Assembly: GCA_965203805.1 (NCBI GenBank) | Contig: OZ241917.1 | Coordinates: 4,064,001-4,128,000 of the forward strand | Reading direction: 5' to 3' | DNA: 64,000 bases | Origin: Candidatus Latescibacterota bacterium | Lineage (GTDB): Bacteria > Latescibacterota > UBA2968 > GCA-2709665 | Shown here: in pieces, positions 28,136-42,915 of the stretch | Layout of the letters: each line of letters begins with the position of its first letter | Numbering within the stretch: the stretch's first letter is position 1 | The notes under the pieces: generated by a model | Told to the model about the DNA's origin: nothing | Database searches by the model: none | What the model saw: only the letters and a program-made list of their open reading frames with translations | Translations under genes and position numbers: made by a program

Positions 28136-30673
28136 ATGGCATTGAAGAAATCCCAACTCTATTCATCACTCTGGCAAAGCTGCGACGAGTTACGTGGTGG
28201 CATGGACGCGTCTCAGTACAAAGACTACGTCCTGACCCTTTTGTTCATGAAGTATGTCTCTGACAAACACGCCTCCGATCCCAACGCGCTTATCGAAGTT
28301 CCTCCTGGCGGCGGCTTTTCGGACATGGTGGCGTTGAAAGGAAACAAGGAAATAGGAGACAGGATAAACATAATTATTGGAAGACTTGCCGAGTCGAACG
28401 ATTTAAAAGGTGTCATCGATCAGGCGGATTTCAATGACGAAAGCAAGCTCGGTTCGGGCAAGGAAATGCAGGATCGGCTTTCCAAACTGGTTGCCATATT
28501 CGACGGTCTGGACTTCCGGGCCAACCGCGGCGGGGGAGATGATCTGCTCGGCGACGCGTACGAATACCTGATGATGCACTTCGCCACCGAGTCGGGTAAG
28601 AGCAAAGGGCAATTTTACACGCCGGCCGAGGTATCCCGTATCATGGCGAAAGTGATCGGTATTGGACCTGACACTCGCCAGGACCAGACCATCTACGATC
28701 CGACCTGCGGCTCCGGCTCGTTACTGCTCAAGGCCGCGGACGAGGCGCCAAACGGCATCACAATCTACGGCCAGGAGATGGACAACGCCACTTGGGCGCT
28801 GGCTCGAATGAATCTGATCCTGCATGGCCACCCGACAGCCGAACTTTGGCGTGGGAATACGCTGGCCTCACCGTATTTCAAAAACTCTGATGACAGTCTC
28901 AAGACGTTTGATTTCGCCGTCGCGAATCCACCCTTTTCTGCAAAAGCCTGGACAAGCGGCCTCAATCCGGAACACGACGAATACGGACGGTTCGGGTATG
29001 GTATCCCCCCGGCAAAGAATGGTGACTATGCCTTCCTCTTGCACCTCATTGCGTCGCTCAGGAGCAACGGAAAGGGTGCGATTATCCTGCCGCACGGCGT
29101 GTTATTCCGTGGCAACAAGGAAGCGGATATCCGCAAGAACCTCGTCCGGCACGGCTTTATCAAGGGTATCATCGGCCTGCCAGCCAATCTATTCTATGGC
29201 ACCGGCATACCCGCCTGCATACTGGTCATCGATAAGCAGAGCGCCCACGCTCGCACGGGTATCTTTATGATCGATGCCAGCAAGGGCTTCCTCAAGGATG
29301 GGAACAAGAATCGCCTGCGGGCGCAGGACATCCATCGAATCGTCGATGTATTCAACAATCAAATCGAGGTGCCTCGCTATTCCCGCATGGTGCCGGTAGC
29401 CGAGATCGGCAGTCCCGCTAACGACTACAACCTCAACATTCCGCGATATATCGACTCCAGTGACCCGGAGGATTTGCACGATCTTGACGCGCACCTGCAT
29501 GGCGGCATTCCGGATCGGGACCTCGATGCACTTGCTGCTTATTGGGAGGTCTTCCCGTCATTGCGTCAGGCGTTGTTTGTAGGTAATGGCCGTCCGGGTT
29601 ATAGCGACGCCAGGGTTGAAACCCAACAGATGAAGGATGCTATTCTCAACCACGGCGAATTCAAGGTCTACATGCGGCGGGTCTCAGTTGTTCTCGATAG
29701 TTGGTGGGAGGCCCACCAGCCCGTCCTTATGTGCCTCGAAAAGGGAACCGATCCCAAGAATATCATCCTCATCTTGTCGGAAGACCTACTCACGCGTTTG
29801 TCCGGTCTGCCACTGCTCGACAGGTATGACATTTTTCAGCGACTGATGGACTACTGGGACGAGGTTATGCAAGACGATGTATACCTCATCGCCGATAATG
29901 GATGGAAAGCTGGCCGTAACCTGCGCTCTCCATACGAAAAAGAAACGCCGGAAATTAAAATCAAAAAAAGAAAAACGACCTCCAATTACGTGGGGGAAGT
30001 CATTCCGGCATCCTTGGTAATCACGAGGTTTTTCTGTGCCGAACAGCAAGAACTCGAGAGGCTTGAGTCAGACGTCGCTAAATTAGCGGAACGGAAAGAG
30101 GAGTTTGAAGCAGAACATGCTGCAGACGAGGGCGTTCTCAACGGACTCGAAGGCAAGAGTGGAATCACCAAGGGTAATGTGCAGCAACGCGCAGTAGAAC
30201 TTAAGGAATCCATCCTGAAAGCGTATCCCAAGAATAAGCCCGAGCACGATCAGGCGAAGTCGATCAAGAAGACGACATTTGGCGATAATGACTGGATCAA
30301 GAACATAAAGGACGCAGAAGGCCTATTCGAGGAGCTGGATGTTCTTTACGATTATCTTCAGCTGATCGCGGATGAGACAAGGCAAAAGAAGGCGCAAGAA
30401 CGAGCGATGGAAGCGTTGCACATGGCGGTAAATGAGAAGTACAACCAGCTCACTGATGTAGAAATAAAGTCTCTTGTGATCGAGGACAAATGGTTCGCGC
30501 GCATCCGAGCCGATATTCAGGCAGAGGTGCAGCGAATTACACAGCAACTTACCGGTAGGGTCAAGCAACTCGACGAGCGTTATGCGCGGCCGCTTCCCAA
30601 GTTGGAGCGGGAGGTCGATGAATACAGCGCGAAGGTCGAGGGCCACCTGAAAAAGATGGGACTATCGTTGTAG
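28136..30673 (+). CDS. hsdM: Type I restriction-modification methyltransferase subunit M
   Basis: CDELRGGMDASQYKDY, GQFYTP, DPTCGSG (motif I), NPPF (motif IV). Confidence 0.96.
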   Translation: MALKKSQLYSSLWQSCDELRGGMDASQYKDYVLTLLFMKYVSDKHASDPNALIEVPPGGGFSDMVALKGNKEIGDRINIIIGRLAESNDLKGVIDQADFNDESKLGSGKEMQDRLSKLVAIFDGLDFRANRGGGDDLLGDAYEYLMMHFATESGKSKGQFYTPAEVSRIMAKVIGIGPDTRQDQTIYDPTCGSGSLLLKAADEAPNGITIYGQEMDNATWALARMNLILHGHPTAELWRGNTLASPYFKNSDDSLKTFDFAVANPPFSAKAWTSGLNPEHDEYGRFGYGIPPAKNGDYAFLLHLIASLRSNGKGAIILPHGVLFRGNKEADIRKNLVRHGFIKGIIGLPANLFYGTGIPACILVIDKQSAHARTGIFMIDASKGFLKDGNKNRLRAQDIHRIVDVFNNQIEVPRYSRMVPVAEIGSPANDYNLNIPRYIDSSDPEDLHDLDAHLHGGIPDRDLDALAAYWEVFPSLRQALFVGNGRPGYSDARVETQQMKDAILNHGEFKVYMRRVSVVLDSWWEAHQPVLMCLEKGTDPKNIILILSEDLLTRLSGLPLLDRYDIFQRLMDYWDEVMQDDVYLIADNGWKAGRNLRSPYEKETPEIKIKKRKTTSNYVGEVIPASLVITRFFCAEQQELERLESDVAKLAERKEEFEAEHAADEGVLNGLEGKSGITKGNVQQRAVELKESILKAYPKNKPEHDQAKSIKKTTFGDNDWIKNIKDAEGLFEELDVLYDYLQLIADETRQKKAQERAMEALHMAVNEKYNQLTDVEIKSLVIEDKWFARIRADIQAEVQRITQQLTGRVKQLDERYARPLPKLEREVDEYSAKVEGHLKKMGLSL

Positions 30674-30694: not shown

Positions 30695-31558
30695 GTGTCA
30701 GGATCGAGTGCGACAAGTCTTCCAACCGTTCCATTCGGGAAATATCGGATCAGCCGGCTGATCATGGGCGACAATCCGATCTACGGATATTCACATTTCA
30801 ATCAGCTACTCTCGGGACATCAGAAGGAAGTCAATACATCTGATCAAGTGATGGCGACCCTGCGGCGCGCGGAGGAAGTAGGCATCAACGCTTGGCAGAA
30901 TTCCCTGACCCAACGATCTACCGCCGATCTTCAACGGTACCGCGAAGAGGGCGGTACGATCCATTACTTCTGCCTCAGCCCTGGCGGGTTATGGTACGAC
31001 GACCCCTCGCGGATCGTAGAAGCCGCCAGACACGAACCGATCGGGATGGCGCCCCACGGAAGCGGTGTCGCAGGGCGGTGTCTCAAGGAGAATCGCCTTG
31101 GGTATCTTCGAGATATCCTCAAGAAGATTCGTGACACCGGCGTCATGGTCGGGTTGTCGGTTCACAATCCCCGTCTCATTGATGTTGTCGAAGAAGAAGA
31201 TTGGGATATCGACTATTTCATGACCGCGCTGTATTATTTGGAAGGCGCCCAAGAGGAGTTCGAACAAAAATTTGGCTATGCGCCCCTTGGTGAAATCTAC
31301 CTCCGCGAACACCGCGACCGCATGTGCCGCATCATCCGCAACACTACCAAACCCTGTATTGTCTTCAAAGTCCTCGCGGCCGGTCGCACGATCGGCTCCA
31401 GGAGCCGGATTCGCGAAGAATTCGCCTATACGCTCGATAATATCAAGTCAAACGACATTCTTCTGGTGGGGATGTATCAGAAATTCAACGACCAACTCGG
31501 CGAAAACGCGGCTATGGTAGCGGAATTGTGTCAGGGAGAGTCAGTTTTAGGCGGGTAG
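30695..31558 (+). CDS. Aldo/keto-reductase-like TIM-barrel hypothetical protein
   Basis: LPTVPFGKYRISRLIMGDNP N-terminus, GLSVH.P and FKVLAAGR resemble AKR-related proteins; GGAGGA RBS. Confidence 0.6.
   Translation: MSGSSATSLPTVPFGKYRISRLIMGDNPIYGYSHFNQLLSGHQKEVNTSDQVMATLRRAEEVGINAWQNSLTQRSTADLQRYREEGGTIHYFCLSPGGLWYDDPSRIVEAARHEPIGMAPHGSGVAGRCLKENRLGYLRDILKKIRDTGVMVGLSVHNPRLIDVVEEEDWDIDYFMTALYYLEGAQEEFEQKFGYAPLGEIYLREHRDRMCRIIRNTTKPCIVFKVLAAGRTIGSRSRIREEFAYTLDNIKSNDILLVGMYQKFNDQLGENAAMVAELCQGESVLGG
31408..31541 (+). repeat. 134-bp direct repeat copy 1 (3' end of the 30695-31558 gene)
   Basis: GATTCGCGAAGAATTCGCCT...CTTCTGGTGGGGATGTA...TGTGTCAGGGA recurs at 42964 and 43987. Confidence 0.9.
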
Positions 31559-31637: not shown

Positions 31638-32969
31638 ATGGCCTTGATGCTCCGACATAGACTATCCGGGGATTTGCCGGTGGGTTACAAGCGTACAGAA
31701 CTCGGGTTACTTCCTGACGCGTGGGAAGCAGTGCCTCTCGGTGATCTCTTCGTTTTCAAGAATGGCTTAAACAAAGCCAAGCGTTTCTTCGGTACCGGGT
31801 CACCTATCGTCAATTACATGGACGTTTTTAGACGCCCGGGACTTAAGGCGGAAGATTTGTCAGGAAGGGTTGACCTCAGTCCTGAAGAGATCAAGAAATA
31901 CAAGGTGCGGCAGGGCGACGTTTTTTTTACGCGTACTTCCGAGACTATTGAGGATGTAGGTGTCGCATCGGTTATGCTCAACGAGCCGCGCGATACCGTA
32001 TTCAGTGGTTTTGTTCTTCGCGCCCGGCCGCGCGGTGGCCGACTTGACAACGGTTACAAGCAGTATTGCTTCGGACCAAGAGAAGTTAGATCCCAAATCG
32101 TATCAAATGCAACATACACAACTCGTGCTTTGACGAATGGTCGATCCCTGTCGGCAGTGCGTATCCCAGTCCCACCAAAGCCTGAGCAACGCGCCATCGC
32201 CGCGGCATTGTCGGATGTGGATGGGTTGCTCACGGCGCTGGAAGCGCTGATCGCCAAAAAGCGAGCCATCAAGCAGGCCGCTAGGCAACAACTCCTTACC
32301 CGCAAGACTCGGTTGCCCGGGTTCACCGGGGCGTGGGTGACGAAGCGATTAGGTGAGCTAATTCGAATAATACCAAGTGGGATCTACGGCTTACCAAGAC
32401 AAAACGGGCAACTAATAGCAATGCCAGTCGCGACCACAGCACACATTGATATTGGTGACAGGTGGAATCACAAGAATATGGACATTCGCTATTTCACGGA
32501 AAATCAAAAAGCGAATTTTTCGCCTAGACAGGGCGATTTGATCGTTGTTAAATCAAGCGGCTCGTCCGAAAGTATACAATCTGGAAAGGTTGGATATGTC
32601 TCGGATGATCAAGCTGGGTTATTCATCTTTAGCAACTTTTTGATGCTCCTTCGCCCAATTTTCTGCAATTCACAATTCTTGTTCTTTCAACTGGTATCTA
32701 GTCGAGTGAAAAAGATGCTGCCACATTTGGTTGAAGCATCAACCTATCCCAATATCCGTATTGACGACTACTTGGACCTACAGATCCCGTTGCCGCCAAG
32801 TGAGGAACAGGCAGCGATTGTGGACATCTTATCTGAAATTGATGCCGAGATTACTTCTCTGGAGCTACGGAGAGACAAAGCCCGTGCTATTAAATGTGGT
32901 ATGGTGCAGCAGCTTCTCACCGGCCAGGTTAGGCTGGTCGACCCCGACTTTGATCACGCCAGGAGCTGA
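31638..32969 (+). CDS. hsdS: Type I R-M specificity subunit S
   Basis: Two TRDs with conserved spacers PPKPEQRAIAAALSDVD...QQLLT and PPSEEQAAIVDILSEID...QQLLTGQVRL. Confidence 0.95.
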   Translation: MALMLRHRLSGDLPVGYKRTELGLLPDAWEAVPLGDLFVFKNGLNKAKRFFGTGSPIVNYMDVFRRPGLKAEDLSGRVDLSPEEIKKYKVRQGDVFFTRTSETIEDVGVASVMLNEPRDTVFSGFVLRARPRGGRLDNGYKQYCFGPREVRSQIVSNATYTTRALTNGRSLSAVRIPVPPKPEQRAIAAALSDVDGLLTALEALIAKKRAIKQAARQQLLTRKTRLPGFTGAWVTKRLGELIRIIPSGIYGLPRQNGQLIAMPVATTAHIDIGDRWNHKNMDIRYFTENQKANFSPRQGDLIVVKSSGSSESIQSGKVGYVSDDQAGLFIFSNFLMLLRPIFCNSQFLFFQLVSSRVKKMLPHLVEASTYPNIRIDDYLDLQIPLPPSEEQAAIVDILSEIDAEITSLELRRDKARAIKCGMVQQLLTGQVRLVDPDFDHARS

Positions 32970-33044: not shown

Positions 33045-33998
33045 ATGTCCGATGCATTCAACACAAAGAAACAGCCAGTACCTTCTAGCATTGGTGACGA
33101 GTGCTTCCCTGCCCTATACCATTCTGCTGACAAAGCCTCACTTTCCGCGCAACAGCGTTTCATCTGTCTGCAAAGATGGCAAATCACTTGCCTCATTTTG
33201 GGTAGCGTTGGTGCTGTCACTGCGACAAATGTTGAGGTCGAAGTCGTCAAATTGGCTTATATTGTTTCGGCGATCGTACTAGCAATTCTAGTCATCCTCA
33301 CTTGGGTAACGCGTGCCCGTCGGGATGATAAAGTTTGGTTCGACTGTCGCGCCATTGCAGAGTCCACAAAGACAGCTACGTGGCGCTTCATGATGAAAGC
33401 TGCACCCTTCAAGGATGACAGCAAGGCTAGAAAGTTGTTCATTAACGAGCTTCGGCTAATACGAAAAGCGAGACCATTCATTGCGCAAAATTTGGCACAC
33501 AACTTAGACGCAAACGCCCCGTCCATAAGTGACTCAATGGATAATGTGCGCCAGAAGCCCTTGAATGATAGGCGATACGTGTATCTTGTGTCAAGGCTTC
33601 GCGACCAAAAGATTTGGTATTCCAATAAAGCCAAATTCAACTCAAGGATGGAACGGCGCTGGTTCTTTGGGGTGTTGGTACTACAGATTCTTGCCGTTGC
33701 TCTTGCAATCATCTGTGCTGCTACGGGTAGTTTGCCGGTAAACATCGTTCCATTGGTGTTAACCAGCGCCGCTGCTGGTATTGCATGGACCCGGATAAAG
33801 CGCTACGCTGAGCTAGCTCAGTCCTATTCGCTTGCGGCCCAAGAACTAGGAGACCAAGAAACAACCGCGTTGGATATAACGGAAGAAGCTGATTTCCTCG
33901 AACTCGTGGAGCAGGTCGAGCAGACCGTTTCTCGAGAGCACACTATGTGGTGTGCACGCCGAGATATAGTGTTCGATCCATCCGACATAAAGTACTAA
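33045..33998 (+). CDS. SLATT/DUF4231 tandem-domain 4-TM membrane effector
   Basis: FPALYHSADKAS..AQ, TM pair, WFDCRAIAESTK..TWRF; second unit RLRDQKIWYSNKA, TM pair, EQTVSREHTMW. Confidence 0.8.
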   Translation: MSDAFNTKKQPVPSSIGDECFPALYHSADKASLSAQQRFICLQRWQITCLILGSVGAVTATNVEVEVVKLAYIVSAIVLAILVILTWVTRARRDDKVWFDCRAIAESTKTATWRFMMKAAPFKDDSKARKLFINELRLIRKARPFIAQNLAHNLDANAPSISDSMDNVRQKPLNDRRYVYLVSRLRDQKIWYSNKAKFNSRMERRWFFGVLVLQILAVALAIICAATGSLPVNIVPLVLTSAAAGIAWTRIKRYAELAQSYSLAAQELGDQETTALDITEEADFLELVEQVEQTVSREHTMWCARRDIVFDPSDIKY

Positions 33999-34056
33999 CA
34001 TGGCCAAGGTTAGAATTCTGTCCTGAAGTCGACGCGTACGTGGACCCTTCAGAATA

Positions 34057-35103
34057 ATGCAATCAAGGATGATTGGGATGACCATCCAGCAAGGCAATGG
34101 ACCTAGATATCTTAATGCCGGGTTCTGTACCGCAATAGAACGAAGCCTTCAGTTATATGTCGCTAAGACATCCGTTCAGCTACCTTGCTTTTTCCCGTCC
34201 GTTTCGAGCGTGAAGACAGCCCTATTACCGGTAAATTACCTTGACCTTCTGACCGTTGCCGGCCATTCACCTATCTTGTCGTCAGCCTATGATTTAGCTC
34301 ATTGTCCTGCCGATCAGCGCTCGCAAATGGAAACTGCACTTTCGAGGCGTACAGAAAGCGGTACAATTGTACTTATCGATAGCGGAAACTACGAACGCTA
34401 TTGGAAAAAAGATACCGAATGGCAACCGGCTCATTTTCATGAGATAGTCGGTTCCTTTCATCACGATCTTTGCTTCTGTTATGACAACCTAGAGCCACCT
34501 GACTCGCCGAAATCGATCGCCCAGGACGTCGTTGCCAGTGTAATCAGAGATCAGGATCATGCACAATCAACAGTGCTTCCGATAGTCCATGGCAACGCAG
34601 AATCATTGCCAGATGCGGCGCGTTTAACTGCGGAACAACTCTACCCTCTATTGTTGGCTGTGGCGGAACGAGATCTGGGAGAGGGAATTCTCGAGCGGAT
34701 CCGCACCGTACGGAAAATTCGAGCAGCGCTAAATTCATTAGGTTTCTATTGCCCGCTTCACCTGCTCGGTACGGGCAATCCGCTTTCAATCATTGCCTAT
34801 ACATTGGCGGGAGCCGATAGTTTTGACGGATTGGAATGGTGTCAGGTCGTTGTTGATCACGAAAATGGCAGGATGTTACATATGCAGCAATGGGATTTGG
34901 TCCGTCATCAGACAGATTGGCGTCCATCTGACGAACTACCATACCGCTACGCTGTTTTGATGCACAATCTGGAATTTTATCGCGAGTTTATGGTGGGGCT
35001 TCATGACGCGCTACGTTACGGAACAGTTGAACCGTTCGTTCAACAATACACAACTAAGGAACAATTGGATCGACTCTTGTCTGCTACCAAAGGAGACCAA
35101 TAG
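34057..35103 (+). CDS. tRNA-guanine transglycosylase (TGT)-fold protein, Cap10-like
   Basis: LIDSGNYE (cf. DSGG[FY]Q), HLLGTG, GADSFDG, C-terminal HNL. No CxCxxC Zn site, so not a housekeeping Tgt. Confidence 0.75.
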   Translation: MQSRMIGMTIQQGNGPRYLNAGFCTAIERSLQLYVAKTSVQLPCFFPSVSSVKTALLPVNYLDLLTVAGHSPILSSAYDLAHCPADQRSQMETALSRRTESGTIVLIDSGNYERYWKKDTEWQPAHFHEIVGSFHHDLCFCYDNLEPPDSPKSIAQDVVASVIRDQDHAQSTVLPIVHGNAESLPDAARLTAEQLYPLLLAVAERDLGEGILERIRTVRKIRAALNSLGFYCPLHLLGTGNPLSIIAYTLAGADSFDGLEWCQVVVDHENGRMLHMQQWDLVRHQTDWRPSDELPYRYAVLMHNLEFYREFMVGLHDALRYGTVEPFVQQYTTKEQLDRLLSATKGDQ

Positions 35104-35104
35104 C

Positions 35105-35818
35105 ATGGCGACGATAAAATTCACGCTTCTGGCTATTGAACAAGCGATCCGCGATGTCTGCAACACATTAGACGAGCGCCCCGCTGTGTCATGGAGAAAG
35201 CACAACGAAGGTGATTTGTGGCGGGAGCTTGTGTCATGTATCCTCGGTAGTCGGGTTCGAATTAACGTTGTAAACTCAGCCATCGAACGCATGACCAGAA
35301 TGTCTTTGTTGTCGCGACCCCAGCCACACACTTGTTTCAATCAACTTGAAGAGGACACTCTAGCAGCACTTAAGGGAGTTTATCCTTTTTTTCGTGTCCG
35401 TGCCAATCAGATTCGGCGGGCAGCAGAGCACATATACAGTTCACGAGGTTCAATACGCAGCCTGTTAAACGACTTAGAAGACGTTTGCATCGCTCGAAGA
35501 TTGCTAGTGCGAGAGGTTCCCGGTCTGGGACCGAAACAGGCAAGTCTTTTCCTTCGCAACATTGGTTTTGCAAAGTACATTGCGATCTTGGATGTACATG
35601 TTCTGACTTATTTGCGTTGGGTAGGAATTAGTGGCTCATCGTTCAAATCGATTTCGAATCTGTGCGAATACGAAGCGTTGGAAGGCGCCTTTATCGAACA
35701 TGCCTGTGCGTTCGGATACTCGCCTGACCAATTCGACCTTGCGGTCTGGATTGTAATAAGGGTGGCAAAGGAGGAATCCAAATTTGCGGATCGTGACTCT
35801 TGTATCGGGTGGATATGA
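35105..35818 (+). CDS. HhH N-glycosylase/DNA lyase (Ogg-like), Cap11-like
   Basis: ELVSCILG, VPGLGPKQASLFLRNIG (HhH with catalytic Lys), AILDVHV (catalytic Asp); ATG 35105 directly after the TGT stop. Confidence 0.82.
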   Translation: MATIKFTLLAIEQAIRDVCNTLDERPAVSWRKHNEGDLWRELVSCILGSRVRINVVNSAIERMTRMSLLSRPQPHTCFNQLEEDTLAALKGVYPFFRVRANQIRRAAEHIYSSRGSIRSLLNDLEDVCIARRLLVREVPGLGPKQASLFLRNIGFAKYIAILDVHVLTYLRWVGISGSSFKSISNLCEYEALEGAFIEHACAFGYSPDQFDLAVWIVIRVAKEESKFADRDSCIGWI

Positions 35819-36380
35819 TTCAACACTTGTGAGCGTGATAGCGAAGGAGGAGGGAGCGGAGTTGTTTCCGCTCTTTATAGACTACGGCCAGCTTGCCGTA
35901 CGCAAGGAGTGGGAAGCCTGCGTGTGCCTTCACTCACAATTTGGTCTACCTCCTGTGACGTACATGGACTTGTCTGGGTTTGGAAAGACGATCTCAAGTG
36001 GTCTCACAGATTGTAATTTGCGTATTAATGAAGATGCATTTTTGCCGGGTCGCAATCTCCTCTTTGTCTTGGCAGGTGCGGCTCATGCTATCGACGTTCA
36101 GGCAAATAGCATCGCGCTCGGCCTACTCAATCCCGCGGATCATATCTTCCCAGACCAGACGAAACAGTTCTTGGAAGAATGCGAAAGGATGATCGAGGTT
36201 GCGATGGGGAGCCGCATTCTTGTCCTTGCGCCATTATTGGAGTTGTCAAAGCGAGAAGTCTTGCTCTTGGCCAGCAAACGAGGGATCACACAAACCTATT
36301 CGTGTCATGCTGGTGGTAAAGAACCTTGCGGGGTTTGTATTGCATGTATTGAAATCGATAATGCTAAAAAAAGGAGATAA
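35784..36380 (+). CDS. queC: QueC-family PP-loop ATPase, Cap9-like
   Basis: SGGYDS PP-loop, DYGQ, PGRNLLF, FPD, TYSC...CGVCIAC Zn site; TTG start with GAGGA RBS overlapping the upstream gene. Confidence 0.88.
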   Translation: MRIVTLVSGGYDSTLVSVIAKEEGAELFPLFIDYGQLAVRKEWEACVCLHSQFGLPPVTYMDLSGFGKTISSGLTDCNLRINEDAFLPGRNLLFVLAGAAHAIDVQANSIALGLLNPADHIFPDQTKQFLEECERMIEVAMGSRILVLAPLLELSKREVLLLASKRGITQTYSCHAGGKEPCGVCIACIEIDNAKKRR

Positions 36381-36382
36381 AG

Positions 36383-36886
36383 ATGGGCGGCATAGGTAGT
36401 GGTAGAGAATTAGACCCAAACGAACTGGAGTCACTCGAGCAGAGTGTCAGAAGGTCTCTTAAGGATCGTGTCGACGAGCACAAACGCAATGTGTTTATAA
36501 GCTTTTCATCGGATGATCTCAGTGAGGTTAATCTGCTGCGTGCTCAGGCGAGGAACCAAGACAGCAACATAGATTTCAATGATTGGTCACTGAGAAAACC
36601 GTTCGACAGTGAGGTAGCCGACTATATAAGGCGCGGTATTAGGGAACGAATTCGCCAATCTTCTGTAACTGTTGTCTATGTGTCTGAAAACACCGCAAGT
36701 AGCAAATGGGTCGACTGGGAGATAAGGGAGAGCCTCAAAATGGGAAAAGGCGTCGTTGCAATGCACAAAGGAAACACTGCACCACGACGACTTCCTAAGG
36801 CAATAATCGACAACAACATTAGTGTCGTACCCTGGAGACAAGATCACCTTGCGAGTATCATTGAGAGGGAATCCGAGAATCGTTAG
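36383..36886 (+). CDS. TIR-domain protein (ThsB/DUF1863-like) with Gly-rich N-terminal extension
   Basis: NVFISFS, IRRGIRERIRQSSVTVVYV, SKWVDWEI (catalytic Glu); AAGGAG RBS fixes start MGGIGSG. Confidence 0.87.
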   Translation: MGGIGSGRELDPNELESLEQSVRRSLKDRVDEHKRNVFISFSSDDLSEVNLLRAQARNQDSNIDFNDWSLRKPFDSEVADYIRRGIRERIRQSSVTVVYVSENTASSKWVDWEIRESLKMGKGVVAMHKGNTAPRRLPKAIIDNNISVVPWRQDHLASIIERESENR

Positions 36887-37104
36887 AAACGCAGGAATTA
36901 ACATTGACATGAAACGCCTCAGCAGTTTTCCTTGGGATTTGGCCGCAATTAGAATCGAGATTTGACTTTTCTGGACGGCGATTCTCTAATTAGCCGGACA
37001 TAAACGGGGGATAAGATGAATATTAACGAACCAAATGCCCCGTGCCTCTTGGGATTGCTAAATTGACGTCTTACAGTTAGGTGCTCGCTGAGGAGGGTCC
37101 CAAA

Positions 37105-38451
37105 ATGTTGACACGGCTACGTTTAGAGAATTTTAAATCCTGGGAAGATACAGGGAACATAACGTTTAAGCCTATCACAGGGTTTTTTGGTACCAATAGT
37201 TCTGGCAAGACCAGCCTTTTTCAAGCTCTGCTGTTAATGAAACAAACAGTCGACTCTTCGGACCCGGGAATTGTATTTCACTTCGGCGATGAGAAGACAC
37301 CTGTGGACCTAGGTGACTTTGAAAGCGTGGTCCACCAGCATGATACAAAGCGAAGTATTAAACTTTCACTTGGCTGGAACTCAGAGATTGAACTGCCTAT
37401 ATACGAAATTCGTAAGGCAGGGGCGACATCGCCAGGTGGCGAAATTGGCTTTGTTGCCGAGATCAAGGAAGAAAACATCGGTTCAGGGAAGTCTCCGATA
37501 TTGCAAGAAATGGCATATAGAGTCCGAGGGAGGCGGTTTGGATTGGTGCGTATAGCCGGTCGCAAGGCACACGAACTATTTGTTCAAGGTGCTGGTTTCG
37601 ATCACTCCCACCGTGTAAGGGATGACGAAAGAAATGTTAGGTCGCTCAAATTTCACGAGTTTCGATATTGGCCGCCTGAGTTCCTCAAAGACCCCACAGC
37701 AATGTACAGTCTACAAAACGCGATGGAGAGATTCCTGCGCGATCTCTATTATCTTGGACCTCTACGTGGCTACCCGTCTCGCATATATGCACGATCGGGA
37801 GCGCAACCGCGTGACATGGGCGCAGCAGGTGAGTTTGTAGTCGATGCGATACTTTCTTCACGTGAACGCGGCAGGAGAATTGGACAACGTAAACAATCTC
37901 AAAGTTTCGAGAGATATGTCGCTCAATGGCTAATGCGTCTCGGGATGATATTCGACTTTCGCGTAGTGGCATTAACTAAAGGGAGAAACTTGTACGAAGT
38001 AAAGGTTCGTAAGTCGCCCGATTCAGCGGAGGTCCTCCTCACTGACATTGGTTTCGGGGTTTCCCAGATTCTTCCCGTGTTGGTGTTGTGCTTTTATGTC
38101 CCCCGTAAGTCCAAGGTCATTTTGGAGCAGCCAGAGATTCACTTGCATCCTTCTGTACAGGCGGGCCTTGCTGATGTATTTATTGACGCTTGGCAGCAGC
38201 GCAATGTGCAGGTCTTGTTCGAAAGCCATAGCGAACATCTATTGCTTAGACTTCAACGTCGAATCGCAGAAGGAAAGATCAACAAGGATGACGTTAGCCT
38301 TTATTTCTGTTCAATGAACGACCAGGGTGCCTCAAACATTAGCCAGCTCGAGCTTGACAAATTCGGGAATATTTCCAATTGGCCTAAAGGGTTCTTTGGG
38401 GATCAGTTCGGTGAAATTGCCGCCATGAGCGAGGCCTTACAGAATAGGTAG
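37105..38451 (+). CDS. ABC-type ATPase (AAA_15/AAA_21 with DUF3696-like C-terminus)
   Basis: LENFKS, GTNSSGKT, IGFGVSQILP, ILEQPEIHLHP, ESHSEH, WPKGFF; GGAGG RBS. Confidence 0.88.
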   Translation: MLTRLRLENFKSWEDTGNITFKPITGFFGTNSSGKTSLFQALLLMKQTVDSSDPGIVFHFGDEKTPVDLGDFESVVHQHDTKRSIKLSLGWNSEIELPIYEIRKAGATSPGGEIGFVAEIKEENIGSGKSPILQEMAYRVRGRRFGLVRIAGRKAHELFVQGAGFDHSHRVRDDERNVRSLKFHEFRYWPPEFLKDPTAMYSLQNAMERFLRDLYYLGPLRGYPSRIYARSGAQPRDMGAAGEFVVDAILSSRERGRRIGQRKQSQSFERYVAQWLMRLGMIFDFRVVALTKGRNLYEVKVRKSPDSAEVLLTDIGFGVSQILPVLVLCFYVPRKSKVILEQPEIHLHPSVQAGLADVFIDAWQQRNVQVLFESHSEHLLLRLQRRIAEGKINKDDVSLYFCSMNDQGASNISQLELDKFGNISNWPKGFFGDQFGEIAAMSEALQNR

Positions 38452-38462
38452 GGGTATCTCGA

Positions 38463-38963
38463 GTGAATTCGAAGAAACCTGAGATAATCATGGATACCAA
38501 TGTCGCCGTAGTTGCAAATCATAATTACCAAGACTTCAACCGGAGTTGCATATTTAAGTGTAGAGAAACATTAAGTATGATCCAGAACGGAGGGTTTCGG
38601 CTTCTTCTTGACGACGAGAATCTGATTATAGACGAATACCGAAGAAACCTCAACCCTTCAGGGGAGCCTGGTCTCGGGGACTATTTCTTCCTGTGGCTTT
38701 GGAAAAACCAAGCTAACGACCAGCATTGCCGGAAAATCACAGTAAAGCCTCACCGAGACCGTGGCTTCGAGGAGTTTCCCAATGACCCAGATCTCGATAC
38801 TTTCGATTGGGATGATCGAAAGTTCGTGGCTGTAGCGTTGGCTAGCCATTCTAGTCCGGAGTTGTTAAACGCATCTGATACAGATTGGTGGCACCACCGC
38901 GCAACACTTCAAAAAAATGGGATTCACGTGGTGTTTGTCTGTCCGGACCTGATGGACGATTGA
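38463..38963 (+). CDS. PIN-fold-like protein
   Basis: IIMDTNV, IIDEY, DWDDRKFVAVA, SDTD acidic-residue pattern; 11 bp after the ATPase. Confidence 0.6.
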   Translation: MNSKKPEIIMDTNVAVVANHNYQDFNRSCIFKCRETLSMIQNGGFRLLLDDENLIIDEYRRNLNPSGEPGLGDYFFLWLWKNQANDQHCRKITVKPHRDRGFEEFPNDPDLDTFDWDDRKFVAVALASHSSPELLNASDTDWWHHRATLQKNGIHVVFVCPDLMDD

Positions 38964-39038
38964 GGCCAACTCATCGAGTGCGGCCAATGTCTTTCTCCCA
39001 GTTGTGAACTGGCCCGAGTTACTAAATTGCGAACGTAC

Positions 39039-42000
39039 ATGAACACAATCGGTCAAAACGAATTTCGCACACAGCGACGGGTGATTTCTTTCTTGCGGGA
39101 TTCGCTAGGGTACTCCTATCTCGGCAACTGGCAGGACCGCGTCGATAACAGTAATGTTGAGGAAGGGCTGCTCACCGATTGGCTGAAGCGAAATGGTCAC
39201 GGCGACAGTGTTATCAACAAAGTTCTGCGTGAACTGGACAACGCATCAGCACTCGGCGGCAGCAAGACTCTCTACGAAGCAAACCGTGAGGTTTATAGAC
39301 TGCTCCGTTACGGAGTGAAGGTCCGACCGGACGTCGGCGAACCGAACGTCACCGTCTGGCTGATGGACTGGGAGAATCCCGGTAAAAACGACTTTGCAAT
39401 CGCCGAGGAGGTTACAGTCTCAGCGACGAACAGCAAACGACCGGACATTGTGCTATACGTCAATGGGATCGCTCTCGGGATCCTGGAACTGAAGCGCTCG
39501 ACGGTTTCTGTGACCGAGGGCATTCGTCAAAACCTTGACAACCAGAAAAAGGAGTTCATCCGCCCCTTTTTCACCACCGTGCAACTCGTGATGGCGGGCA
39601 ATGATACCGAGGGGTTGCGTTACGGCGTAATCGAGACACCTGAGAAATACTGGCTGCACTGGATGGAAGCGAACGCCAACCCGGCTGCCGGCGATAATCC
39701 ATTACTGCGCGAGCTGAGTCAACTCTGCAGTAAAGAGCGATTACTTGAGATTATACATGATTTCGTCGTCTTTGACGCTGGGGTAAAGAAGATTTGCCGC
39801 CACAACCAGTACTTCGGGGTTCGTGCCGCACAAAAACGCGTAAAGATCCGAGAAGGCGGTATCATCTGGCACACGCAGGGGAGTGGAAAGAGCCTGACGA
39901 TGGTCTGGCTTGCGAAATGGATTCGCGAGAACGTCACCGACGCAAGGGTCCTTCTCATAACGGATCGCACGGAATTGGACGAGCAAATTGAGACTGTTTT
40001 CAAGGGTGTCAGCGAGGACATCTACCGGACGAAAAGTGGAGCTGATCTCGTGCAGGTGCTTAACAGACCCGACGAATGGCTGATCGGCTCCCTTATCCAC
40101 AAGTTCGGTACAACCGACGATATCAGCGAAAGAGAAATCGAGGCCTACGTCGACGAGATCAAGAAGAATCTACCCGGTGATTTCCGTCCCAAGGGCGAAA
40201 TTTTCGTTTTCGTGGACGAATGTCACCGCACCCAGTCCGGAAAACTCCACGAGGCAATGAGGGCAATTTTACCAGGCGCTTCGCACATTGGCTTTACTGG
40301 AACCCCTTTGCTCAAGGCAGACAAGCGCCGCAGCATCGAGACTTTCGGAACCTACATCCACACCTATAAGTACGACGAAGCGGTGCGCGATGGCGTGGTG
40401 CTGGACTTGCGTTACGAAGCACGTGACATCGATCAGATTATAACTTCGCAGGAGAAAATAGATCAGTGGTTCGAAATCAAGACTCGCGAGTTGACCGACG
40501 TCGCTAAAGCCGAACTAAAGCAGCGATGGGGGACGATGCGAAATGTCCTTAGTTCCGAGGATCGGTTGAGAAAAATCGTTGGCGACATAATGTTCGACAT
40601 GCAGACGCGTGACCGGTTGAAAAGTGGTCGCGGAAATGCATTGCTTGTTTCCGGAAGCATCCACTCTGCCTGCCGCCTCTTTGATATGTTTCAGCAGACC
40701 GATTTGGCGGATAGGTGCGCCATTGTCACGTCTTACAAACCGGCCCCGGGGGACATCAAGGGAGAGGAAACGGGCGAGGGGCTTACCGAGAGACTTCGCC
40801 GTTACGGAATCTACCGAAGGATGCTTTCGGCTCACTTCAACGAGCCTGAAGACAAGGCGATGGGCAAGGTCGCCACGTTTGAGACGGAGGTAAAGAAACG
40901 GTTTATCGAGGAACCGGGACAGATGAAGCTGTTGATCGTCGTAGATAAACTGTTGACAGGTTTCGATGCACCATCGGCGACCTATCTTTACATTGACAAA
41001 CACATGCAGGACCACGGGCTCTTCCAGGCGATCTGCCGGGTAAACCGCCTCGACGGTGAGGACAAAGAATATGGATACATCGTCGACTACAAGGACCTGT
41101 TCCGTTCGTTGGAGCAGTCGATTCAGGATTACACCGGAGGTGCCTTCGGCGGGTACGACCGCACCGATGTGCAGGGGTTGCTGACAGACAGGCTCGCGAA
41201 GGGGCGGGAACGACTCGAGGAGACACGTGAGGCTATCAGGGCTTTGTGTGAGCCCGTCGCCCCGCCCCGCAACCGGTCGGCCTATCTACGTTTCTTCTGT
41301 GGGACAGATAGTGGAAACGGGGGCTGGCTTAATGCGGACAATGAGGCAAGGCGAGTTACGCTTTACAAGCGGGCTGCTGCGTTTTTGAGGGCTTACGCCA
41401 ACCTGGCCAATGAGATGCCCGACGCCGGTTACAGTGAAGCCGAGGCGCAAGAGATAAAAGCAGAAGTAGCCCACTACGAAAATGTCCGCAAGATAGTCAA
41501 GCTCGCGAGCAGCGACTACGTTGACCTGAAGATGTTTGAGCCTGCCATGAGGCACCTCCTCGACACCTACATCCGCGCCGAGGAGAGCGAAAAGCTCTCG
41601 GCGTTTGACGATCTGACACTTGTACAGCTAATCGTCAAGAAAGGTGATAAGGCGTTAGATGCACTTCCAGACGGTATTCGCAGTGATCAGGAGGCGACGG
41701 CCGAGACGATAGAGAATAACGTCCGCCGTCTCATCATCGACGAGACCCCGGTCAACCCTAAATATTACGGCAAGATGTCTGAGTTGTTGGACGCCCTGAT
41801 CCTTCAGCGTAAGCAGGAAAGCCTCGACTACAAGGTGTACCTTGCGAGAATTATTGACTTGGCCAAAAAAGTCAGCAGTCCTGAATCCGAAACGTCCTAT
41901 CCGTCGGAAATCGACACCAACACGCTCAGGTCTCTATTCGATAACTTACAGGGTGCCGCACTTGGACAAGACAAGGCCTATGCCGACACTGGGATGGAGC

Positions 42001-42191
42001 TTTCCGCGGATGAACTTTCCGCAAAGGCGGTCGCTGTGGATAACGCCATCCGTTGCGTCAAGAAAGCGGACTGGCGTGGAAACAAATTTAAGGAACGGGA
42101 GGTCCGCAACGCTATAAGGTCGCAACTCGGCGACAACGAGGGCCTCGTGTACCACATATTCGAGATTGTAAAGGCGCAGAGTGAATACTGA
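39039..42191 (+). CDS. hsdR: Type I restriction endonuclease subunit R
   Basis: RPDIVLYVNG...ELK nuclease, HTQGSGKS, DECHR, FTGTP, LLTGFDAP, QAICRVNR. Confidence 0.96.
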   Translation: MNTIGQNEFRTQRRVISFLRDSLGYSYLGNWQDRVDNSNVEEGLLTDWLKRNGHGDSVINKVLRELDNASALGGSKTLYEANREVYRLLRYGVKVRPDVGEPNVTVWLMDWENPGKNDFAIAEEVTVSATNSKRPDIVLYVNGIALGILELKRSTVSVTEGIRQNLDNQKKEFIRPFFTTVQLVMAGNDTEGLRYGVIETPEKYWLHWMEANANPAAGDNPLLRELSQLCSKERLLEIIHDFVVFDAGVKKICRHNQYFGVRAAQKRVKIREGGIIWHTQGSGKSLTMVWLAKWIRENVTDARVLLITDRTELDEQIETVFKGVSEDIYRTKSGADLVQVLNRPDEWLIGSLIHKFGTTDDISEREIEAYVDEIKKNLPGDFRPKGEIFVFVDECHRTQSGKLHEAMRAILPGASHIGFTGTPLLKADKRRSIETFGTYIHTYKYDEAVRDGVVLDLRYEARDIDQIITSQEKIDQWFEIKTRELTDVAKAELKQRWGTMRNVLSSEDRLRKIVGDIMFDMQTRDRLKSGRGNALLVSGSIHSACRLFDMFQQTDLADRCAIVTSYKPAPGDIKGEETGEGLTERLRRYGIYRRMLSAHFNEPEDKAMGKVATFETEVKKRFIEEPGQMKLLIVVDKLLTGFDAPSATYLYIDKHMQDHGLFQAICRVNRLDGEDKEYGYIVDYKDLFRSLEQSIQDYTGGAFGGYDRTDVQGLLTDRLAKGRERLEETREAIRALCEPVAPPRNRSAYLRFFCGTDSGNGGWLNADNEARRVTLYKRAAAFLRAYANLANEMPDAGYSEAEAQEIKAEVAHYENVRKIVKLASSDYVDLKMFEPAMRHLLDTYIRAEESEKLSAFDDLTLVQLIVKKGDKALDALPDGIRSDQEATAETIENNVRRLIIDETPVNPKYYGKMSELLDALILQRKQESLDYKVYLARIIDLAKKVSSPESETSYPSEIDTNTLRSLFDNLQGAALGQDKAYADTGMELSADELSAKAVAVDNAIRCVKKADWRGNKFKEREVRNAIRSQLGDNEGLVYHIFEIVKAQSEY

Positions 42192-42915
42192 GTGGAAAAC
42201 TTACAGCATTGAGGTACGAGGGACTGCGGTCGACGTGGTCCACAAGGACATCAAAAACCTCCATATTGGGGTTTACCCGCCGAACGGCAGGGTGAGAGTG
42301 GCCGCTCCGCTCAGTCTTGATGATGACGCGGTGCGGATGGCTGTTGGGTCTCGGCTGGGATGGATTCGTCGCCATCAGTCGAAATTCGAGAAACAGAGTC
42401 GGCAGTCCCAGCGGGAATTCGTTACAGGAGAAAGCCATTATTTCGAGGGGAGGCGCTACCGACTCGATGTAACGGAACAGGACGGTCGACCTTCGGTCTG
42501 TCTCCTCAATAACACTACTATGGGTATGTGCGTTCGCCCCGGCGCCGACCGGAATACCAGAGAGTCCGTGCTGGATCGATGGTACCGCCAGCATCTCCGT
42601 GATCGTCTACCGGGCCTCATCGCGAAGTGGGAACCTGAATTGGGTGTGGAAGTCAATGAAGCTCGTATCAGGAAGATGAAGACTCGTTGGGGTACCTGCA
42701 ACCCGAATGCCTGTCGAATCTGGCTGAATCTCGAGCTGGCAAAGAAACCGGCATCCTGCCTAGACTTCGTCGTTCTCCATGAAATGGTTCACTTGATCGA
42801 GCGTCGTCACAACGATCGTTTTCGGTCGCTGATGGACAGGTTCATGCCAACTTGGCGCTATCACCGGGACGAACTCAATCGATCGCCACTGGCGCATGCG
42901 GACTGGCAGTATTGA
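42181..42915 (+). CDS. M48/YgjP-like (DUF45) metal-dependent hydrolase, copy 1
   Basis: MKTRWGTCN, VVLHEMVHL (HExxH), HNDRF. Confidence 0.9.
   Translation: MNTEWKTYSIEVRGTAVDVVHKDIKNLHIGVYPPNGRVRVAAPLSLDDDAVRMAVGSRLGWIRRHQSKFEKQSRQSQREFVTGESHYFEGRRYRLDVTEQDGRPSVCLLNNTTMGMCVRPGADRNTRESVLDRWYRQHLRDRLPGLIAKWEPELGVEVNEARIRKMKTRWGTCNPNACRIWLNLELAKKPASCLDFVVLHEMVHLIERRHNDRFRSLMDRFMPTWRYHRDELNRSPLAHADWQY

Follow-up and report, generated by a model that had tools for sequence, protein, structure and literature searches.

Why should the TIR protein of a defence locus begin with a glycine-rich tail, immediately behind a gene of the QueC family? This question is raised by 64,000 nucleotides of contig OZ241917.1 (positions 4,064,001 to 4,128,000 of the forward strand) from a Candidatus Latescibacterota bacterium, hereafter called the window, in which five genes at 33045–36886 would constitute one anti-phage system. 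An earlier note on this DNA had proposed that the tail is a portable tag grafted onto a TIR domain and modified at its N-terminus with a 7-deazaguanine base. Having compared the TIR protein and its neighbours with related loci, solved structures and known defence systems, we consider it likely that the TIR protein is a substrate for deazaguanylation.

Layout of the operon

Five genes of the forward strand stand close behind one another, with the TIR gene at the end. The first encodes a SLATT protein of 317 residues with two transmembrane segments (33045–33998), a predicted membrane-disrupting effector matched by Pfam (SLATT_3, 1.8e-33; SLATT_1, 6.9e-33) and NCBIfam (SLATT_3, 2e-42; SLATT_1, 1.3e-31). 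It sits 58 nt upstream of the gene for a TGT-like protein of 348 residues resembling Cap10 (34057–35103; Pfam TGT, 3.3e-11; PADLOC TGT model PDLC00913, 7.9e-26). A single nucleotide separates the stop of this gene from the start of the third, which encodes an OGG-like HhH-GPD glycosylase resembling Cap11, of 237 residues when counted from its ATG (35105–35818; Pfam Ogg-HhH, 5e-23). The fourth gene overlaps the third and uses a TTG start; its product is a Cap9-like member of the QueC family, 198 residues long (35784–36380; Pfam QueC, 3.6e-34; PADLOC QueC model PDLC00911, 2.2e-27), and a predicted deazaguanylating ligase. The ThsB-type TIR protein of 167 residues (36383–36886; Pfam ThsB_TIR, PF08937, 3.5e-25) closes the series and is predicted to be both the substrate and the signal-making enzyme.

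By Pfam, PADLOC and PDB searches, the operon holds the TIR gene, the cap9-, cap10- and cap11-like genes and an effector gene. No CD-NTase domain (SMODS, or cGAS/DncV-like nucleotidyltransferase) was found by Pfam among the nine proteins scanned around the operon, and the sole SMODS match in the genome (C1:4914424–4914837) is about 814 kb away. Judged by its domains, the operon is laid out as a type IV anti-phage signalling system based on cyclic oligonucleotides (CBASS) in which a Thoeris TIR protein replaces the CD-NTase.

Start, tail and fold of the TIR protein

The start of the TIR gene can be read directly from the sequence. A Shine-Dalgarno motif, AAGGAG (36371–36376), is followed after six nucleotides (ATAAAG) by the ATG at 36383–36385, and the gene begins 2 nt after the stop codon of the QueC-like gene (TAA, 36378–36380), both as the earlier note had described. 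An AAGGAG also precedes the ATG of the OGG-like gene. An in-frame TAA (36365–36367) lies 18 nt upstream of the TIR ATG with no start codon between them, and the next in-frame start is a GTG at codon 37, within the first TIR strand (NVFISF). The ATG at 36383 is therefore the only sensible start. Alternatives on either side were rejected, including the downstream start whose use would, according to the earlier note, have refuted its proposal, none being usable.

The product begins with MGGIGSGRELDPNELESLEQSVRRSLKDRVDEHKRNVFISF and opens on M-G-G-I-G-S-G. Since N36 opens the NVFISF strand, about 35 residues precede the TIR core. An AlphaFold2 model built with 41 homologues has a mean predicted local distance difference test score (pLDDT) of 75 and a predicted template modelling score (pTM) of 0.71. 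In this model, residues 1–10 have a pLDDT below 50, residues 12–27 form a helix according to DSSP, and the TIR fold starts from residue 35. The model and the position of N36 agree in upholding the description of a Gly/Ser-rich tail and a short helix ahead of the core.

The flexible tail comprises residues 1–11 (MGGIGSGRELD; 36383–36415). Its second codon (36386–36388) specifies Gly2, the predicted acceptor amine once Met is removed; removal of Met before Gly by methionine aminopeptidase is an established specificity. The helix that follows (PNELESLEQSVRRSLK; 36416–36463) is a predicted docking helix, analogous to helix alpha1 of CdnD. Gly2 and Gly3 are at least 90% conserved in the homologue alignment, and the helix consensus LE..AK..L is kept across the 41 homologues.

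The remainder of the protein is that of a ThsB. The Pfam ThsB_TIR domain spans residues 38–130, PADLOC ThsB models match down to 2.6e-17, and the top Foldseek matches of the model are a Bacillus cereus TIR (8fz9) and Escherichia coli EcThsB (8wcf). Residues E113, W109 and W112 are invariant in the 41 homologues. Glu113 (codon 36719–36721), the predicted catalytic glutamate, aligns with the Glu of the VRYEI motif of Bacillus cereus ThsB (6lhy), which we take to be the catalytic E85 of that enzyme. None of the seven solved TIR relatives covers profile positions 1–30, all of them matching only from position 31 onward.

Linkage of the tail to the QueC-like gene

A protein database search returned 1108 TIR homologues at E <= 0.001; N-termini were examined for the best 120, and 118 of these begin with M-G, so that the tail is no accident of this one protein. 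A species-level genome collection gave 76 TIR loci from many phyla, whose fetched flanks were examined (individual loci are designated below by L numbers). In 64 of the 76, the gene immediately upstream of the TIR gene is QueC-like. These QueC-linked loci also hold a TGT-like gene (62 of 64, the two others being cut by a contig end), an OGG-like gene (60 of 64) and, within the fetched flanks, a SLATT gene (39 of 64).

Gly2 conservation among queC-linked TIR proteins had been set beforehand as a test of the proposal. Gly is the second residue in 61 of the 64 proteins (56 MGG, three GTG-GG, one MGN and one MGS), and the start lies 29–38 residues before the core strand in the loci where the motif search located that strand. 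Among the three without Gly2, L013 begins M-A-G-S-G, and the genes of L027 and L068 are visibly broken. The spacing seen in the window recurs as well: of 62 intact pairs, 48 have a gap of 0–3 nt from QueC-like stop to TIR start, and in 31 this gap measures exactly 2 nt.

As a control, 168 genomes of the same phylum were searched with the TIR profile, and the 30 best loci were fetched with 1.5 kb flanks. All five TIR proteins with intact QueC-, TGT- and OGG-like genes carry an MGG tail. The tail is absent from each of the 24 TIR proteins in this sample that have no QueC-like gene in their 1.5 kb flanks; in these, only two to ten residues precede the first strand. Comparing N-termini with and without an adjacent queC, a check suggested in the earlier note, thus opposes 61 tailed proteins of 64 to none of 24. 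One further locus of the phylum sample, from the same genus (L093, 751–1836), joins the C-terminus of the QueC-like protein in frame to TIR residue 55. Tail, helix and first strand are all lost through this deletion, so that the copy is probably dead. In another case, L044 (416–898), a TIR of the same family with 57% identity starts MGSEDAGG, and neither the 415 nt upstream of it nor the rest of its 3.4 kb contig holds a QueC-like gene; this TIR is possibly an orphan copy.

Comparison with the tags of CBASS cyclases

A tblastn search of plasmids with the TGT-like protein matched 17 records, 13 of them on Rhizobium, Agrobacterium or Neorhizobium plasmids. Four plasmid records were examined: one, H4 (Rhizobium), holds a TIR-type operon, and those of Bacillus sp. 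ZJS3, Bacillus mycoides and Pseudanabaena hold type IV CBASS operons. The three cyclases of the latter all start MGGSGG (MGGSGGYNNPSKTLSQLEQEKQ; MGGSGGNNIPSKTLSQLEQEKQ; MGGSGGGFFSNSDITKELREAE), and the modified CdnD peptide of type IV CBASS has been reported as GGSGGSFGSGFDPR (10.1101/2025.04.06.647259).

We searched a tag profile made from TIR residues 1–33 against 147,337 candidate N-termini of the 5.87 Mb genome together with the three plasmid cyclases. The window TIR scored 45 bits and two Bacillus cyclases 17.8 and 15.4, ahead of the best other N-terminus of the genome (12.4); no further tagged protein was found in the genome among these candidates. The TIR and cyclase tags clearly share a design, consisting of Met-Gly-Gly, a floppy stretch of about ten residues and then a helix.

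The helper enzymes

The best PDB match of the QueC-like protein is Cap9 (9nto_B, 3e-12). The paper on the structure of Cap9 names residues S18, S23, R86, Y115 and D117 (10.1101/2025.04.06.647259), and these align respectively to S8, S13, R90, F122 (a Tyr to Phe change) and D124 of the QueC-like protein. Across 41 homologues, residues S8, G9, G10, D12, S13, R90, N91 and D124 do not vary, nor do the four zinc cysteines, and the conservation of F122 is at least 90%. With 29% identity (3e-21) to the Cap9 of a Bacillus plasmid CBASS versus 27% (5e-14) to the QueC of its own genome, the protein is somewhat closer in sequence to the former.

Assignment as a canonical QueC, that is, a preQ0 synthase, was rejected: the protein scores 112.2 bits against the TIGR00364 equivalog, below its cut-off of 150.3, and the genome holds two QueC genes above that cut-off. 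These two genes (1072189–1072818 and 3118648–3119265 of contig C1, genome G000) score 158.7 and 161.9 bits. The first of them lies inside an open reading frame (ORF) of 418 residues, which, read from its longest start, would extend the protein by about 200 residues at the N-terminus.

The sole PDB sequence match of the TGT-like protein is Cap10 (9ntn_A, 1.2e-7), whose D122, H226 and D248 align to D143, H235 and D257. Residues D108, S109, G110, D143, H178, H235 and D257 are invariant in 41 homologues. The first ATG of this gene (34057–34130 region) lies 16–28 codons upstream of the starts of most homologues, and the true start may therefore be a Met a few residues in. The OGG-like protein matches the NCBIfam N-glycosylase/DNA lyase model at 8.9e-25, below the cut-off of that model, and its PDB matches are archaeal and bacterial OGG proteins (best 9.9e-11). 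No PADLOC model matched it at 1e-3, and it was assigned through Pfam.

These ancestries suggest another reading, in which the three helpers act on nucleic acid and insert 7-deazaguanine into DNA or tRNA, or remove it, as in Dpd-type systems; the TIR protein would then be a separate effector and its Gly-rich start a flexible linker. All three do descend from nucleic-acid enzymes according to their Pfam families (TGT, QueC and Ogg-HhH), the solved relatives of the OGG-like protein are DNA glycosylases, and the text of the Cap9 paper describes a later transfer step of type IV CBASS with its target still unknown (10.1101/2025.04.06.647259). However, a linker would not account for a tail and helix found only on TIR proteins that follow a QueC-like gene (61 of 64 versus 0 of 24), nor for the same tag on true type IV CBASS cyclases. 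The QueC-like protein also fails the canonical QueC cut-off, and Cap10, the only PDB sequence match of the TGT-like protein, has been described as remodelled to bind a protein N-terminus (10.1101/2025.04.06.647259). We regard an action of the helpers on nucleic acid as very improbable.

Weighing the proposed modification of the tail

Several observations weigh against deazaguanylation of the TIR tail, or against parts of the scheme built upon it, and are collected in this section. They concern the helpers and their substrate, the tag itself, the predicted contact between TIR and TGT-like proteins, and the variability of related loci.

Cap10 K154 falls in an insertion and has no aligned counterpart in the TGT-like protein. 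Cap10 D73 and S74 lie outside the phmmer alignment, and probably correspond, by motif, to D108 and S109 of the invariant DSG (108–110). Regarding the substrate, a host supply of 7-carboxy-7-deazaguanine (CDG) is plausible, since the genome also holds one radical SAM gene of the QueE family and one gene resembling queD, but neither candidate reaches any curated cut-off. The tag profile did not detect the Pseudanabaena cyclase, and the two Bacillus cyclases are near-identical; the likeness in sequence therefore rests on one independent case, and homology of the TIR and cyclase tags in sequence is weakly supported.

Gly2 is not absolute either, as the TIR of L013 (7962–8456) starts M-A-G-S-G-G-G, with Ala2. 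That of L021 (6945–7445) starts MGNKSNDYS and has Gly2 but no Gly run, and its locus also lacks the OGG-like gene. Finally, the adduct, its binding, the signal and the effector response would follow type IV CBASS and type VII Thoeris by analogy.

The contact between the TGT-like protein and the TIR, for which the earlier note had suggested co-folding, was modelled in three runs with three controls, each protein being given as an own-built alignment of 41 rows. The pair passes weakly: the interaction score derived from predicted aligned errors (ipSAE) was 0.60, 0.48 and 0.52 (median 0.52), and the best of the three controls gave 0.02. The runs share at least 69% of their contacts, with partner pLDDT of at least 74. 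Among 80 solved complexes, 58 reached the mark used here, as did 2 of 110 mismatched pairs, and at 0.60 or under it was reached by only 7 of the 80 solved complexes and by both passing mismatches; because own alignments were used, these counts hold only roughly for the present pair. Since a Cap10–CdnD complex (9ntn) is already solved, the pass may also show mere likeness to it. The modelled support for the pairing is weak, and no interface was returned.

Could the tail and helix be a non-covalent docking peptide for the TGT-like or the QueC-like protein, or be modified differently, with no 7-deazaguanine on Gly2? The unmodified TIR already co-folds, weakly, with the TGT-like protein (0.52 versus 0.02), and the Ala2 of L013 and the missing Gly run of L021 would fit such a peptide. 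Nevertheless, Ala2 likewise loses its Met and offers a free amine. The SGGxDS ATP-binding loop, R90/N91, D124 and the zinc cysteines are invariant in the 41 QueC-like homologues, which would be unexpected for a pure scaffold. In type IV CBASS itself, binding of CdnD to Cap10 fell upon deletion of Cap9 (10.1101/2025.04.06.647259). A docking peptide without deazaguanine thus appears unlikely to us, and modification of Gly2 remains our preferred reading.

Related loci present variant architectures. A second TIR gene stands within the fetched flanks of 26 of the 64 QueC-linked loci, beside the SLATT gene in many of them (the loci include L004–L009, L014–L017, L020, L034, L045, L048, L051, L052, L056, L063, L067 and L069). 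These second TIR proteins are untailed, starting a few residues before strand 1, and come in two types, of about 132 residues (starting MAKKKIFISYDYDNDKHYKN) and about 157 residues (starting MGLPRTFVGFSSTD); the W-x-x-E motif is retained where they could be aligned.

In at least 17 of the 64 loci, the TGT-like protein has an N-terminal TIR_2 domain of its own (L039, L043, L045, L046, L048, L051, L052, L054, L056–L059 and L062–L066; a further instance is L084:4584–5987). By Pfam, TIR_2 is present in 8 of 9 long TGT-like ORFs tested from genome loci and also in P0122, a plasmid protein; phmmer detected it at 16 loci. Of the 13 plasmids from Rhizobium, Agrobacterium or Neorhizobium, 12 have a TIR-domain protein annotated where the TGT-like match lies, and the remaining one is unannotated there. 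When the catalytic Glu was sought, 7 of 16 fused TIR domains aligned to the TIR profile. At L019 (5095–6642), the open frame with the TGT-like domain opens with a Schlafen AlbA_2 domain (1.4e-11) where others have TIR; this may reflect a fusion or, alternatively, an adjacent gene that shares the reading frame. The effector varies as well, with just 39 of the 64 loci showing a SLATT gene.

Given the second TIR proteins and the TIR–TGT fusions, the role of the tailed TIR may differ among variants, and in such systems it may act as a regulator instead of making the signal. Extended to the window, this would mean that the tailed TIR is tagged but serves as a regulator or sensor, killing being left to another TIR or to direct depletion of nicotinamide adenine dinucleotide (NAD+). 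Second TIR proteins with a conserved W-x-x-E and the TIR–TGT fusions speak for this. Yet the window operon and its nearest relatives, L001–L003, have only the tailed TIR, and its Glu113 is invariant, so that it must be the sole TIR activity here. For the window we hold a purely regulatory role to be extremely improbable, and take the tailed TIR as the likely signal maker as well as the tagged protein.

Relation to known systems

Thoeris operons with cap9, cap10 and cap11 were reported in a bioRxiv preprint of December 2025 (10.64898/2025.12.03.692087); like the present operon, they combine a TIR and an effector with these three genes. AlphaFold3 there places ThsB on Cap10 (interface pTM, ipTM, 0.79) and on Cap9 (ipTM 0.62) as it does the CD-NTase. 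The deazaguanylated TIR is hence an idea already published as a prediction, of which the window operon is a further clean example. The proposal of the earlier note that the tail is a modification tag on a TIR was borne out by comparison, namely by the linkage counts, the residues aligned with Cap9 and Cap10 and the MGGSGG starts of cyclases; the idea itself is not new. In the passages considered here, the preprint neither counts how often Gly is conserved at the N-terminus nor compares TIR proteins without QueC, and it describes no second TIR proteins, TIR–TGT fusions or operon experiment; its figures and supplements may hold more.

With type IV CBASS as described with Cap9 and Cap10 (10.1101/2025.04.06.647259), the operon shares the helper trio, a membrane effector and a Met-Gly-Gly-(Ser/Gly) tail with a helix on a signal enzyme adjoining the helper genes. 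It differs in its signal enzyme, which is a TIR and not a cGAS/DncV-like nucleotidyltransferase. Gene order differs too, being QueC–TGT–cyclase on the Bacillus and Pseudanabaena CBASS plasmids and TGT–OGG–QueC–TIR here.

Type VII Thoeris combines a ThsB TIR with the SLATT effector ThsH and uses the canonical cyclic ADP-ribose (cADPR) signal (10.64898/2025.12.03.692087). The present operon likewise pairs a ThsB-type TIR with a SLATT-domain membrane protein, but it has helper genes, which type VII as described there does without. TIR proteins of the phylum sample that stand beside SLATT without QueC (L100 and L110) have no tail.

QatABCD also employs a QueC-family enzyme for protein deazaguanylation in phage defence, its QatC modifying QatB (PMC13279940, PMC13639016). 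The active site of QatC is remodelled, whereas Cap9 keeps the ancestral one (PMC13082051). Because the canonical motifs are retained, the QueC-like protein of the window is of the Cap9 kind and not a QatC; no QatA, QatB or QatD gene is present. A parallel can also be drawn with type II CBASS and with Thoeris operons containing Cap2 and Cap3, where a terminal glycine of the signal enzyme is likewise the handle for covalent priming by helpers. In those systems the handle is C-terminal and the chemistry E1/E2-like, whereas the handle would here be N-terminal and the predicted conjugate a nucleobase.

A proposed mechanism

Start codon, domain identities, conservation and linkage were observed in the present analysis, and the scheme that follows is set upon them. 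The five genes (33045–36886) would form one anti-phage system composed of a Thoeris-type TIR, a SLATT membrane effector and the helper trio of type IV CBASS. Methionine aminopeptidase would expose Gly2 of the TIR translated from the ATG at 36383. The QueC-like enzyme would activate host CDG with ATP and join it by an amide bond to the amine of Gly2, giving a 7-amido-7-deazaguanine (NDG) adduct of +176 Da, as Cap9 makes on CdnD. In this reaction, helix 12–27 may dock on the QueC-like enzyme while the 10-residue tail reaches the active site.

The TGT-like protein would then bind the tagged tail and helix, and hold or prime the TIR, and a later transfer step would probably be undone or kept in check by the OGG-like protein. 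On infection, the TIR would cleave or cyclise NAD+ to a cADPR-type signal, upon which the SLATT protein would breach the membrane.

The TIR–TGT fusions (at least 17 of 64 loci and 13 rhizobial-group plasmids) and the second, untailed TIR proteins (26 of 64) suggest a further, speculative possibility, which we rate as rather doubtful. The deazaguanine tag might be a switch for TIR–TIR assembly, docking on the TGT-like protein setting whether TIR proteins pair into an active NADase, and the tail and helix might be a module portable between CD-NTases and TIRs.

Genomic surroundings

The operon is embedded in a type I restriction system split by defence cassettes. By Pfam, HsdM, HsdS and HsdR are encoded at 28136–30673, 31638–32969 and 39027–42191, and the operon lies between hsdS and hsdR. 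A 287-residue ORF without Pfam match (30695–31558) stands between hsdM and hsdS, and a YgjP-like metallopeptidase gene (42181–42915; 2.2e-61) comes after hsdR.

Directly downstream of the TIR gene, an AAA_15/DUF3696 ATPase (37081–38451) and a protein of 166 residues (38463–38963) match the PADLOC models HEC-03B (2.4e-128) and HEC-03A (6.7e-33). Membership of these genes (37081–38963) in the TIR system was rejected, as they match this separate two-gene defence candidate. In L001 and L002 the operon is likewise followed by the HEC-03 pair, and the shorter flanks of L091 and L092 also contain the ATPase. The HEC-03 genes accompany the operon only in these closest relatives, apart from one weak AAA15-type match in L114.

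Concluding remarks

For testing this reading, the window operon has the simplest layout, as it combines a single TIR with a TGT-like protein that is not fused and with an effector of the SLATT type. To a published prediction of two sentences, the present analysis adds the counts linking Gly2 and the tail to QueC, a QueC-less control and the finding of a single tagged protein in this genome. If the reading is true, nucleobase–protein conjugation would not be peculiar to CBASS cyclases but would serve as a general means of priming, common to two unrelated families of immune signalling enzymes.

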